64,000 nucleotides of DNA, from the NCBI GenBank assembly GCA_965223005.1, contig CBDCVK010000002.1, forward strand, positions 128,001-192,000, read 5' to 3'. Source of the stretch: Terriglobia bacterium. Lineage in GTDB: Bacteria > Acidobacteriota > Terriglobia > JAJPHL01 > JAPKYU01. Below, in pieces: positions 5,794-16,675 of the stretch (positions are counted from its first letter, which is position 1; each line of letters opens with the position of its first letter). The notes beneath the pieces were generated by a model. It saw nothing but the letters and a program-made list of their open reading frames with translations. It searched no databases and was not told where the DNA came from. The translations under genes and the position numbers were made by a program.

Positions 5794-5838
5794 GGTAGTG
5801 GGTCAGTTGCCGAGCAGGGCGTTTATACAGACAAGTGG
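5794..5838 (+). repeat. Island repeat copy A (GGTAGTGGGTCAGTT...TATAC...CAAGTG)
   Basis: Aligns with 11696-11740 and 16630-16675. Confidence 0.7.
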
Positions 5839-5979
5839 ACTAGTTCCGAGTGGGCCGTCAACCATCGAAACTGGCGATGCGGCCGGTATGGCCTTCGAGA
5901 CATGGCGGGACTGATTCTCCAAACCGGAGGCTAATCCTGCAAGTCTTAGCAACTCAACTTCGGCGGTGATCCTCCAGGA

Positions 5980-6078
5980 GGCTAACGGCGCAAATCAGCC
6001 GCCGCCGAGCGAGCTGTGGCGAGCGAGGTACCAAACCGCGGCGCGGTTTGGCGGTCGGAGTGCATTTGCTTGTTAGGC
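5980..6078 (-). other. attC-like integron cassette recombination site
   Basis: Minus strand GCCTAAC-AAGCAAATGCACTCCGACCGCC...GGCGGCGGCTGATTTGCGCC-GTTAGCC: R''/R' boxes and an imperfect stem with extrahelical bases; 99 bp; downstream of a low-GC gene. Confidence 0.75.
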
Positions 6079-6185
6079 ACGCCATATTGGGCGTCGCAAT
6101 TGTGTGTGCGTTCCGGCATTGGCGGGTACTGACATATTCAAGAGAACATGATCTTCAGCTCAGGTTCACCCTTTGGCTCTCCCTA

Positions 6186-7139
6186 TCATGACGCCCTGAG
6201 CAAGTAGCATACAGAACAGGGATAGACTTCCCCGGGAGCTGTAGCTTCCGCAAGAACTTCATACCGGCTTCTACCCAACCAACCATCGAATGTCGACTTT
6301 CGAACAAGAGAAATGTGGCTATCCCAATCGTCAGATCCAAAAGGATAGACAATCGCAACAAGACCACCGGGACGCACTACACGGGCCATCTCCAGTAGGG
6401 CGAGTCTAGGTTCCAAAATATGTTCCAGGACGTCGAAACTTAGAATAATATCGAACCAGTTCTCGGGAAAGTCCAGGCTCCTGGAATCCATAATCGCATA
6501 TCTTTCGCCTTCCTTACTCGTTTCATTGCACCAATGCACCATTGGTTCGGAGATGTCTATTCCGATTCGCTCTTGAGCGTCGGTAAATAGACGCAGAGTA
6601 CCTCCCATGCCGCTGCCTACATCTAGTATTCGAGACTTTGAAAGCCCGAGCCCCATAGAGTTCGCAAGAGCTTGGATCTGGCGGACAAAGAAGATACGTC
6701 TTGCCGCTACGTTCTCGACCCACAGGTGCGACAGGTAGATTGAACTCGAGTAGTACTGTTCCGACCCAAGTTGCTCCAGGAGAATCTCCTTCTTGGACAT
6801 GCACAGCCAATCATTAAGAAATACGTCTGCAGGCTGATAATGCAACTGTGTGCATAGTCGCGCCAACTGAAATCCGGCCATAGAAACATAGGAGTCTAGA
6901 TACTCCGAATATAAGAAAAGATTCGTAAGAAACCATTCAAAGGATCTTGTCGCTGAGCGGAGTGCCGCAACATCTACGGTCAAGTTATGTCGGACCAATT
7001 CCTTCTCGAAACGACCGGTCATGAGAAATATCAGCCTCCCATTGCGTTCCTCCCCAGATATGAAGGATTTCGCCAAATCAGAGGCGTCTAAGGCCCTCAA
7101 TACGGAAAACGTCTTCCAGTAGTCCGCCCGTATCCCCAT
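6186..7139 (-). CDS. Class I SAM-dependent methyltransferase (putative gene cassette)
   Basis: ILDVGSGMG motif I, GIDIS, FDIILSFDVLEH, RVVRPGG; visibly lower GC than flanks. Confidence 0.85.
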   Translation of the reverse strand: MGIRADYWKTFSVLRALDASDLAKSFISGEERNGRLIFLMTGRFEKELVRHNLTVDVAALRSATRSFEWFLTNLFLYSEYLDSYVSMAGFQLARLCTQLHYQPADVFLNDWLCMSKKEILLEQLGSEQYYSSSIYLSHLWVENVAARRIFFVRQIQALANSMGLGLSKSRILDVGSGMGGTLRLFTDAQERIGIDISEPMVHWCNETSKEGERYAIMDSRSLDFPENWFDIILSFDVLEHILEPRLALLEMARVVRPGGLVAIVYPFGSDDWDSHISLVRKSTFDGWLGRSRYEVLAEATAPGEVYPCSVCYLLRAS

Positions 7140-13419: not shown

Positions 13420-13423
13420 GACC

Positions 13424-16378
13424 ATGCGGTTTGCTCGTCTGCTGAGTCAGGTTGCAGCGTTGGGCGCGCTGTCGGCAATGACCGTCTTCGCACAGGCCAG
13501 CTTTGAACGGGACGTCAAGCCGATCTTTAAGACCAATTGCTTCAGTTGCCATGGCGGCACCGCGATGGTCGGGCTGGATTTGCGCACGGCCACCTCCATC
13601 CTGCGCGGCAGTCATGAGGGTCGGGTGGTGGTCAAAGGATCACCCGAAAAAAGCCTGCTGTACGAAAAGGTCTCCAAGCGAATGATGCCGCCGCCCGCGT
13701 TCAACTTGAAGCTGACCGATTCGGAGATCGAGACCATCCGGCGTTGGATTGAGGCGGGAATGCCTTCGGAGGAAGAGGCCACTATCGCCGCTAAAACGAA
13801 AGAGGAGACGGCGCGGTTCGAGAAACTGGCGTTGCCCATCTTCAAGAGCCGCTGCTTCACTTGCCATGGCACGGATAACCCCATGGGTGGCCTGGATCTG
13901 CGCATGCTTGAATCGGTGCTAAAGGGAAGCGCAAACGGGCCCGTGCTCTCCGATCTCGGTTCGACCAAAAGCATCCTGATCCGTAAGGTGACCGCTCGCG
14001 AAATGCCGCCGCCGGGCATGGGTAAACCTCTGCGCGACGCCGAAATCCGCACCCTGGCCCGCTGGATTGATACCTCCGATTTGCGCCTCCTGCGGCCGCA
14101 TGTGGCGCGCACCACTTTCAATCAGGCCGAAGCGCCGCCGGTCACAGAGAAAGACCGCCAGTTCTGGGCGTTCCAGAAGCCGGTCGCCGTACCCGTCCCG
14201 TATGTGAAAAATCGGCAGCGCGTGCGCACGCCGATTGACGCCTTCCTGCTGGCGCAGCTTGAAGCCAAGGGACTCAGCTTCTCGCCCGATGCCTCCAAGG
14301 TCACTTTGATGCGCCGCGCCTGGCTGGACCTGATCGGGGTGCCGCCGTCCCCAGAAGACATCCGGGCGTACCTGGCGGACAACAAGCCGGACGCGTACGA
14401 GCGGTTGCTCGACAAGCTCCTCGCCTCACCGCACTACGGCGAGCGGTGGGGCCGCCACTGGCTGGATGCGGCTGGCTACACCGATGTGACCGGGTTTGAT
14501 GGCAGCGTTGAGGGCGCTATTGTCGTAGACGGCATGTGGCGCTACCGGGATTGGGTGATCCGCGCGTTCAACCAAGACATGCCCTACAACCAGTTCCTGG
14601 TGGAGCAATTGGCCGGCGATGAGCTGGTGGACTGGCGCTCGGCTGAGAAGTACACGCCGGAGATCGTGGACAAGCTGATCGCCACCGGCTATCTGCGCTC
14701 CGTCTATGACCGCACCGATCAGGACGTCGTGAATCTGCCGGGAGAGCGGTATGACGTGCTCTTCGACTTGATGGAGAAGGTCTCCACCGGCCTGATGGGG
14801 TTGACGGTTGGCTGCGGTCGCTGCCACAGCCACAAGTACGACCCCATTCCGCAGAAGGACTACTATCGCATGCTGGCGGTCTTTGCCACCGGCCATAACC
14901 CGGTCCACTGGCTGCAGCCCAAGAACCATTTCCTGCCGAGCGTCTCCAAAGTGGAGCAAGAGGAAATCGAACGCCACAACGCGGAGATTGACAAGCCGGT
15001 GGCCAAACTCAAGGAGCGGCTGGAAGCGATTTACGGCCCCTACCGCGAGAATCTGCTGGAAGGCAGGCTCAAGGAGCTCCCGGAAGTTATTCGCGAAGAG
15101 ACGAAACAGGCTCTGGCCACGCCGAAAGACGAGCGGGACACGGTGCAGAAGTTCCTGGCCGCTAAATTTGAGAAACAGCTCACCGTGACCGCGGAGGAAG
15201 TCGTCAAGGCGCTAAGCGAGGATCACCGCGCCACTCACGAGAAGCTGAGCGAACAGATCAAGATCCTGAACGGCTATCGCCGCTCGTGGGACAAGATCCA
15301 GGCGTTGTGGGAAGTGGCGCCGCCGCCCAAGATCCGCCTGCTGCAGCGGGGCGAGGTGGAGCGTCCTGGGCCGCCGGTCCAGCCCGGCTTCCTGGAGGTC
15401 CTCAGTCGGGCCGGAGAGACCGATGCAGTCCGGCCGCCGGAGACGAAGGGCAAAACCAGTGGTTACCGGCTGGCGTTTGCGCGCTGGCTGACCAGCCCGG
15501 ACCATCCGCTGACCGCACGCGTGATGGTTAACCGCGTCTGGCAGCAGCACTTTGGGCGCGGCATCGTGGAAACTCAGGACAACTTCGGCAAGCAAGGCAA
15601 GCCGCCGACGCATCCCAAGCTGCTGGACTGGCTGGCGGTGGAGTTCATGCGTCAGGGTTGGAGCATCAAAAAGCTCCATAAGCTCATCATGACTTCCACA
15701 GCCTACCGCCAATCATCGGAGCGGCCTTCGGGCGGCTCGCTGGCGCTCAAAGTGGACCCGGAAAATCGGCATTTGTGGCGCATGAACCTGCGCCGGCTGG
15801 AAGCAGAAACCTTGCGCGACGCCATCATGGCCGCCAGCGGCAAGCTGGACTGGACGATGGGCGGGCCTGCGGTCGAGGGCCCGTTGATGGCCGACGGCCT
15901 GAAGAAGCTGAACCCTCACGACGACGGGGAAGGTGAGCCGGTTGACGCCGAGCCCATGGGAATCCGGCGGCGCAGCGTGTACGTGCTGGCGCGGCGCTAC
16001 TTCCCGCTGGGGTTCCTGGAGACCTTCGACGCCCCCATCATGCAGACCAATTGCAACCGGCGCATGAACTCGGTGTCGCCCCTGCAATCGCTCACACTGA
16101 TGAACGATGATTTCGTCGTCGAGAACGCCACCGCCTTTGCCGAGCGGGTCGCCAGCATGTCCAATGGCAATCTGGAAGAGAAAATTGAAAAAGGGTACCT
16201 GCTGGCTCTCTCCCGCAAGCCCTCCCGCGAGGAAGTACAAATCGCGCGGGCGCATCTGGCGCGCGAGGAAGATCTGTATCTGAAGGCCAACGCCGCGCCG
16301 GAACAGGCTCGCAAAGAAGCGCTCGAAAGCTTCTGCCACCTGCTGTTCCTCACCAACGAGTTCCTCTATATCGAGTGA
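13424..16378 (+). CDS. PSCyt/PSD1 protein with two N-terminal cytochrome c-like domains
   Basis: [52 protein letters not shown] 13424 followed by a signal peptide. Confidence 0.9.
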
Positions 16379-16538
16379 CAGCGGCCCCCCAAACCCGCCT
16401 CGGCTCATGACGCTTCCGCCCATGCCCAGCCTCCTGCCGTTTGGTGTGCGGAAGGGCTATAGTCACTGTTATGGTGGACATCCACTTCCGTAGAAAGTAG
16501 CGACTCCGGTTTTCCCAGATCAGCTATGCACAAAGCCG

Positions 16539-16675
16539 ATAGTCCCCACAGACGGGCTAGTGTTTATCAATCCCGGTTTCAGTTGGGCGAATAGTTCGCT
16601 TTCCGGAAACTGACCCTCTACGCCCGCTAGGCGTAGTAGGTCAGTTTCCGATAAAGGCGTTATACATCCGGGTGG
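16539..16675. repeat. Back-to-back palindromic junction D of the island repeat
   Basis: Hairpin CGGAAACTGACC-CT-CTACGC-ccgctag-GCGTAG-TA-GGTCAGTTTCCG, then ATAAAGGCGTTATACATCC. Confidence 0.8.

Follow-up and report, generated by a model that had tools for sequence, protein, structure and literature searches.

The repeat units and the genes between them

The stretch of DNA analysed here (the window) comprises 64,000 nucleotides, C2:128001–192000 of a Terriglobia bacterium assembly (3.24 Mb, 61% G+C, 10 contigs, 96% complete), and between 5.8 and 16.7 kb it carries short related repeats, six of which (A, B, C1, C2, D1 and D2) stand around small groups of genes. An earlier sequence-only reading of the window had placed six related units at these positions, and both the grouping of the repeats and a genome-wide profile confirmed them as one family, with no further pieces elsewhere in the window. 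The units are related as described, but the estimated size of ~45–90 bp was too low for what proved to be a modular element, in which a module M1 can be followed by a module M2 and whole units reach 90–150 nt. All six copies were recovered, but the inventory also lacked an M2-only piece and a related repeat on the minus strand, termed R7 (Table 1). The GTAG tag that marks the foot of a unit was present in five of the six copies.

C1 and C2, like D1 and D2, are joined tail to tail, with the layout CTAC-N10-GTAG at C and CTAC-N11-GTAG at D, just as had been proposed. The two junctions also share the 17-mer TGACCCTCTACGCCCGC, which was found exactly at 11676 and 16611, 4935 bp apart, and for which 100 shuffles gave no match. 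The palindromic or hairpin core ascribed to the units held for part of the set only: as DNA, C1 folded at −11.9 kcal/mol (z −2.67 against shuffles) and the D junction at −26.9 kcal/mol (z −5.93), but A, B, C2 and D1 folded no better than shuffles, with z values between −0.3 and +0.7.

The cargo between the units was assigned by Pfam. The A-to-B stretch encodes a methyltransferase, an HU-type protein and a PilZ protein, and the contents predicted for the next two intervals were both recovered, with signalling genes from B to C1 and a single DUF1501 gene with a single PSCyt2/PSD1 gene from C2 to D1. Unit A abuts a sigma-70-like promoter of a divergent PSCyt/PSD1 gene (2443–5661); the site, TTGACA-17-TAGACT at 5750–5778 on the minus strand, lies upstream of that gene, with its −35 (upstream) end 16 nt from the foot of A. 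R7, which has many copies in the sister genomes, ends in a stub of an open reading frame (ORF) of 19 codons, MVDRPLGHYRILEKLGREA (7262–7321, minus strand), which we take to resemble the start of a Ser/Thr kinase.

Table 1. Repeat units, cargo genes and a recombinase gene near a dimer. Coordinates are those of the window unless another stretch is named; G001 and G003 are sister genomes.
Feature	Position	Strand	Description
A	5794–5842	+	M1-only unit with GTAG foot; same place in G001 and G003
R7	7275–7487	−	Related repeat; begins with sequence like the extension (M3) of type-2 elements
M2-only piece	8361–8404	+	Leading half of an M2-then-M1 tandem that recurs in the genome
B	8438–8528	+	M1 variant without GTAG foot, plus M2
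Signalling cargo, B to C1	8579–11295		REC-REC-Hpt, 8579–9808 (+); REC-SpoIIE/PP2C, 10162–11295 (−); Pfam
C1	11639–11686	−	M1 variant b; GTAG-tagged imperfect hairpin
C2	11696–11787	+	M1 variant a plus M2; foot-to-foot dimer with C1, 10-nt spacer
Cargo, C2 to D1	11956–16378	+	DUF1501, 11956–13419; PSCyt2/PSD1, 13355–16378; Pfam
D1	16535–16621	−	Type-2 M1 plus M2; M1 hybrid relative to G001
D2	16633–16686	+	M1-only unit; foot-to-foot dimer with D1, 11-nt spacer
Integrase-DUF3489 gene	2471–4261 of C10:105001–117000 (L152) of this genome	−	Integrase fragment at 9298–9680 of the same stretch

A modular family dispersed through the genome

Iterated nhmmer searches of the genome (G000, its sister genomes being G001, G002 and G003) were started from two seeds; their 69 and 82 hits merged into 86 pieces in 65 intergenic regions. 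None of the 86 lay inside a called gene, the gene calls being ORF-based and covering 86% of the genome as coding, and 55 of the pieces were clustered. The 12-mer GGTCAGTTTCCG by itself occurs exactly 20 times in the genome, where simple arithmetic predicts about 0.4 occurrences.

The units are put together from the modules M1, M2, M3 and X. M1 (~45 nt) has the core CACTTGTCCGG..G.....TATAC..CCAAGTG or GGTCAGTTTCCG...TATAC..CCAAGTG and occurs in at least five variants, and M2 (~50 nt) has the form ..GGTAAAC.CTA.CC...T.GTGGGGACCTATC.. in two subtypes; the extension of the type-2 elements recurs in the window as R7. Three composites were recurrent, namely foot-to-foot M1 dimers (8), M2-then-M1 tandems (7) and M2/M2 back-to-back pairs, and in six of the eight M1 dimers the spacer had the common form GCCCGC..GG. 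The tail-to-tail arrangement seen twice in the window is accordingly a fixed architecture of the family: close pairs were oriented '-+' (tail to tail) in 11 cases, '++' in seven and '--' in three, and '+-' (head to head) in none.

A conserved RNA structure was not supported. RNAalifold returned no consensus fold for M1 (55 copies) or M2, and the high mutual information between alignment columns was that expected from two subfamilies. Rfam gave no match at gathering score in the window and none at E values up to 1 in 5600–17200, and nothing relevant on six loci of other genomes; a resemblance by eye to a group II intron domain was dropped because of the missing Rfam hit. The C junction matched no plasmid or phage in the comparison made.

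The position of the pieces followed no rule with respect to genes. The 65 host regions comprised 33 tandem, 18 divergent and 14 convergent ones, and the nearest downstream gene was co-directional for 42 pieces and not for the other 44. When Pfam was run on 104 of the 114 ORFs flanking the pieces (two small regions and duplicates were left out), the Pfam-supported neighbour of the 59 M1-bearing pieces was co-directional in 23 cases, opposite in 21 and undecided in 15, and the count in the reverse direction was 33 versus 26. Since an orientation bias was thus absent both ways and 14 of the regions are convergent, a promoter or 5' leader was ruled out. Among the genes beside the pieces are those for an rpoD-type sigma factor, purD, OmpA, MFS, DUF1501 and PSCyt proteins.

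Spread among relatives

Many copies were present in all three sister genomes, and no blastn match was obtained in three other genera of the family. For a wider view, an M1 pattern allowing up to three mismatches was searched in 301 genomes of the class, with the reversed pattern as a control, which had no hit in any genome. The M1 pattern was counted 28, 21, 39 and 5 times in G000, G001, G002 and G003, respectively, and 1–8 times in 41 other genomes. M2 was nearly restricted to the genus, with 24, 42, 30 and 7 occurrences in the same four genomes and single copies in four others; at two more loci, in other families, M1 precedes a GTAAAC motif like that of M2. The closest public records carry the labels Terriglobia or Acidobacteriota and not Planctomycetes, and in one of them an M1–M2 unit stands upstream of the orthologous DUF1501 gene.

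Outside the genus, both variants of the M1 middle were found in distant families, GTAG was not a regular feature, and the 3' half CCAAGTG was nearly fixed. The outer stem, read by eye in the first 28 non-genus M1 rows, had uncompensated changes in 21, compensated changes in two, wobble only in two and no change in three, the compensated count being subject to a pattern search that penalises double changes. Mobile genes stood beside four of 15 distant M1 loci (IS91 plus integrase, IS30-like rve, a group II intron reverse transcriptase and a Mutator fragment). At one distant locus (G021, C7:2171049–2174082), the only M1 copy of that genome lies ~100 nt upstream of a tyrosine-integrase gene, which is followed by an IS91-type zinc-binding transposase gene.

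Gene order at and away from the repeats

The regions that carry the repeats are linked to rearrangement. Identity between this genome and G001 is about 93–96%, and all four element-free 20-kb stretches compared were each colinear with one G001 region: positions 20001–60000 of the window with three small indels, and two further stretches apart from insertions of the size of an insertion sequence (IS). The first 20 kb of the window were likewise colinear with G001 except for several listed differences. G001 carries a 1.66-kb IS 100 nt after A, and it lacks a 4.25-kb segment, 7483–11737, the left edge of which is the end of R7; on the right, the two genomes match again from 11738 on, where M1 meets M2 in C2. 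At D the two genomes differ by 153 nt and 72 nt, the latter being one M1 unit that is extra in G001; this difference inside M1 has the look of an unequal crossover. A 411-nt tandem duplication is also among the differences; it lies at 17771–18226 with 45-nt ends that are 98% alike, and 17738–18181 is absent from G001.

The cargo has its own distribution. The signalling block had no close match in G001 (68% at most among the matches listed) and was found in G003 at another locus with 93–95% identity, the homology starting at 8536, just after B. At A, synteny between this genome and G003 begins exactly at the GTAG foot, and G003 has a partner M1 there. The DUF1501/PSD1 block of G003 (in C2:1834001–1848000) is bounded not by the repeats but by two inverted 1.15-kb rve IS copies, in the manner of a composite transposon, and a DDE_Tnp_1_4 IS of 1.66 kb interrupts its DUF1501 gene.

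Similar patterns were seen elsewhere in the genome. In an island at C2:216–232 kb, four successive blocks are each bracketed (+)...(−), and over 12.7 kb the close G001 matches of the island are at four places on three contigs. Its MFS block (98.8% identity) and the adjoining AKR block (94.5%) lie 1.37 Mb apart in G001, with the breaks at element borders, and two other islands were scattered or without close counterpart in that genome. A tally by hand over 51.8 kb, using matches of at least 250 nt and at least 90% identity and excluding IS copies, found a piece no more than 120 nt away for 9 of the 22 block ends, a distance within which ~8% of the sequence lies; the figure overstates the link, because breaks favour intergenic DNA anyway. 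The proposal that the modules are bounded by the repeats is therefore partly borne out, in that blocks are found elsewhere or are missing in sister genomes and the breaks often fall at or near repeats. The breakpoints themselves fell variously at the foot, between M1 and M2, at the end of M2 and inside M1, so that there is no single crossover site. The same reading had set plain repeats, scattered through ordinary intergenic DNA with no link to synteny breaks, against its own proposal; here the copies do lie in 65 ordinary intergenic regions, beside genes such as rpoD and purD, but the link with synteny breaks exists.

Hybrid C/D junctions, which excision of the enclosed segment had been predicted to leave, were sought in metagenome contigs. 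The joints 8464>11739 and 11686>16633 occur in contigs of DNA and RNA-library runs; because their sides are short (22–30 nt) and their spacers differ from those of C and D, they are most simply other copies of the family, the hybrid being another dimer copy, and not excision products. Pieces are present in contigs of two metatranscriptome runs, though contigs from RNA libraries do not prove transcription, and the low cover of the elements in such contigs proves nothing either.

Search for a mobilising enzyme

As stated beforehand, no cognate enzyme is encoded in the island. The more specific suggestion of a REP-associated tyrosine transposase (RAYT, an HUH enzyme of the Y1 type; REP, repetitive extragenic palindrome) as the mover was rejected for this genome: PF01797 (Y1/RAYT) had no match in G000 or G003 and was present in 35 of 41 relatives. 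G001 and G002 do have a RAYT-like ORF, but it is flanked by its own inverted GC-rich palindrome, which has no copy in G000, and no M1 or M2 lies within 1.5 kb; the locus in G001 is C4:708578–711883, with an empty site in G000 at C6:547–598. Nor was there any M1 or M2 near 14 sampled Y1 loci of the class. PF04986 (IS91) also had no match in G000, a zero that says little because its control rang in none of 14 genomes, and PF14319 had one match, below cut-off.

The genome is rich in IS, with families of 13, 8, 6, 4, 4 and 3 copies, among which IS256-like, rve-type and DDE_Tnp_1_4-type elements were identified. The ends of these three families are unlike M1 and M2, so the repeats were rejected as miniature inverted-repeat transposable elements (MITEs) of them; moreover, nhmmer placed no piece within IS copies of G000, and the alignment contained neither terminal inverted repeats at the outer ends nor target duplications at the element borders. 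IS copies are 99–100% identical between G000 and G001 or G003, and are therefore active or exchanged. One of them, a 1.44-kb IS256-like element with a Mutator transposase (C9, L026:3965–5403), has 13 copies in G000 and is 99–100% identical to at least nine copies in G001, which suggests recent exchange or bursts.

Tyrosine recombinases (PF00589) had 12 matches in G000, none of them in the island, and resolvases three. A recombinase consistently next to the copies, as might have been expected, was found only in part: a piece stands no more than 1 kb from three of the 12 tyrosine-recombinase matches, but the majority of the 65 loci lack a recombinase in their vicinity. The closest case is a 596-aa tyrosine recombinase with a DUF3489 tail, which starts ~130 nt from a foot-to-foot dimer (Table 1); the next gene is a 1504-aa BACON/DUF7948/SBBP ORF, followed by an M1–M2 unit and an integrase fragment.

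Other features of the window

Upstream of the repeats, window positions 1–5661 contain two tandem DUF1501 paralogues and a second PSCyt/PSD1 gene; the two PSD1 genes of the window (the one within 1–5661 and that at 13355–16378) have long inverted similarities of 71–74%. Further short repeat families, distinct from M1 and M2, occur at 9972–10111 and 19857–19962, and also in another stretch at L015:3936–4068, and several copies of them were seen in G001 and G003.

Interpretation

The reading that we favour, with a probability of about one half, is that M1 and M2 are lineage-amplified, non-coding and non-autonomous mosaic intergenic repeats, similar to REPs, to REPINs (REP doublets forming hairpins) and to bacterial interspersed mosaic elements (BIMEs), which act as recombination substrates. 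M1, M2 and their extensions would combine in a few fixed arrangements and settle intergenically regardless of gene orientation. With ~86 similar pieces across the genome, the dispersed elements would be open to recombination with one another; in concert with active IS and with gene flow among relatives living together, this might cut the element-rich regions up into small blocks of genes, which then become lost, duplicated or relocated. The blocks would thus have moved by recombination between copies and not by a dedicated enzyme, and the units themselves may once have been small mobile elements that spread. Part of the shuffling is accounted for by IS elements.

Several observations weigh against this reading. 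It may simply be that the elements build up where the genome is flexible for other reasons (IS activity or gene transfer, for example), and the association is not a cause. The gene calls are crude, and no mobilising enzyme was found, which leaves the spread of the family unexplained. GTAG stands at the 5' foot of only 28 of the 55 M1 copies of this genome, and most units tested lack a stable hairpin. Furthermore, the 34-nt M1 core was found in 45 of the 301 class genomes (44 of 300 without G293, an M1-positive genome that is unpublished) and in 31 of 131 genera, and two of the four M2 occurrences outside the genus are whole M1–M2 units. A class-wide core together with single-copy M1–M2 units elsewhere is not typical of selfish REPs, which is a hint of some function for the host.

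Such a function would make the units cis elements of the host (a protein binding site, a terminator or insulator, or a small transcript), selected throughout the class and amplified in this genus, a possibility that we consider unlikely but that deserves some weight. It is in keeping with the conservation of the core in sequence, with both middle variants in distant families, and with the recurrence of M1 followed by the M2-like GTAAAC motif in other families. The outer stem is uncompensated in 21 of 28 rows, and the nearly fixed CCAAGTG suggests that a sequence is read and not a hairpin. The pieces in contigs of two metatranscriptome runs would also be in line with it, although RNA-library contigs do not prove transcription. 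On the other hand, the distribution is patchy (15% of genomes, mostly with 1–8 copies), and the pieces obey no rule of orientation or distance to genes in either direction. RNAalifold gave no consensus fold, covariation was explained by two subfamilies, and Rfam remained without match even at E 1. The mobile genes beside 4 of 15 distant loci fit variable DNA.

A more direct role in mobility, with M1 as the termini or recombination sites of non-autonomous modules moved by a tyrosine, serine or HUH recombinase encoded elsewhere, appears improbable. The bracketing (+)...(−), four times running in one island and twice in the window, and the lack of head-to-head pairs would suit such termini, but the tail-to-tail pattern is equally explained if the dimer is the unit. 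Single-gene blocks of 95–99% identity do lie at different places in G001, and at A the GTAG foot is the exact point from which G000 and G003 are syntenic, but breakpoints at four different module borders and the IS-bounded DUF1501/PSD1 block of G003 argue against defined termini. The three tyrosine-recombinase matches within 1 kb of a piece, including the integrase-DUF3489 gene ~130 nt from a dimer with an integrase fragment at the far end of its block, have to be set against the absence of a recombinase near most of the 65 loci, and an HUH enzyme against the lack of Y1/RAYT in G000 and G003, the different palindrome at the RAYT-like gene of G001 and G002 with no M1/M2 within 1.5 kb, and the 14 sampled Y1 loci without M1 or M2. 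Of similarly low probability is the related idea that M1 and M2 are joints of a dispersed exchange of gene cassettes, in which a recombinase acting in trans, with the M1 core as its recognition site, would excise single-gene blocks and reinsert them at other M1/M2 sites, both inside one genome and among co-resident relatives; the tyrosine recombinase with the DUF3489 tail would be one candidate enzyme. Finally, that the units are MITEs derived by deletion from a DDE-type IS family of the genome and moved by its transposase is very hard to credit: the many IS families and their near-identical copies in G001 or G003 speak for it, but IS256-like, rve and DDE_Tnp_1_4 ends are unlike M1/M2, no piece lies inside an IS copy, and terminal inverted repeats and target duplications are missing from the alignment.

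Comparison with known repeat systems

No description of the M1/M2 family was found in the literature searched, on repeats of sponge symbionts, on mobile elements of Acidobacteria and on extragenic palindromic repeats of Planctomycetes. The favoured reading as mosaic repeats leans on the BIMEs of enterobacteria, mosaics in which a small number of motifs, some palindromic and some not, are combined in fixed ways with alternating orientation; BIMEs are strictly intergenic irrespective of gene orientation and are bound by integration host factor, gyrase or DNA polymerase I. The present family similarly consists of few motifs in recurrent combinations, with 86 of 86 pieces intergenic and in any orientation. 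In contrast, the sequences are unrelated, the phylum is another one, and the tie to shuffled single-gene blocks is stronger than usually described for BIMEs. Integron attC cassettes are comparable in that imperfectly palindromic sites stand at the ends of small blocks of genes and close relatives differ in gene content; here, however, no integron integrase platform is apparent, the blocks occur in both orientations and dispersed through the genome, and the sites do not take a uniform position relative to genes.

GTAG-tagged REPs and REPINs with their RAYT transposases are treated by Di Nocera et al. 2013 (PMC3733652). As in those systems, the repeats are short and intergenic, and many have a GTAG foot next to an imperfect palindrome; they also form inverted dimers with a short, fixed spacer (eight M1 dimers here), often lie downstream of genes and differ in copy number from one relative to another. 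Unlike in those systems, G000 and G003 have no RAYT and the RAYT-like gene of G001 and G002 has an unrelated palindrome; GTAG is found in about half of the M1 copies and most units are not stable hairpins; and the units are longer and modular, with a core common to families of a class. The same source describes the TIRtrons or TIRYTs of Acidobacteria, in which inverted repeats on either side of a Y1-type gene can give rise to small families of repeats. Such a gene, with inverted palindromes flanking it, is present in G001 and G002; the palindrome has, however, no copy in G000, and M1 and M2 are absent beside the 14 Y1 genes sampled.

Significance

If the family is only REP- or BIME-like, it would provide a well-resolved acidobacterial case of repeats that persist and shape flexible islands without a RAYT, which would bear on how such repeats spread and survive. 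A 34-nt core is, however, shared by many genera of the class, and genes that adjoin across the repeats lie megabases apart in a sister genome, so that the family could instead be a recognition site for an unknown protein of the host or of a mobile element. In both cases, the repeats can be used in practice to mark the variable gene pool of these sponge-associated bacteria.

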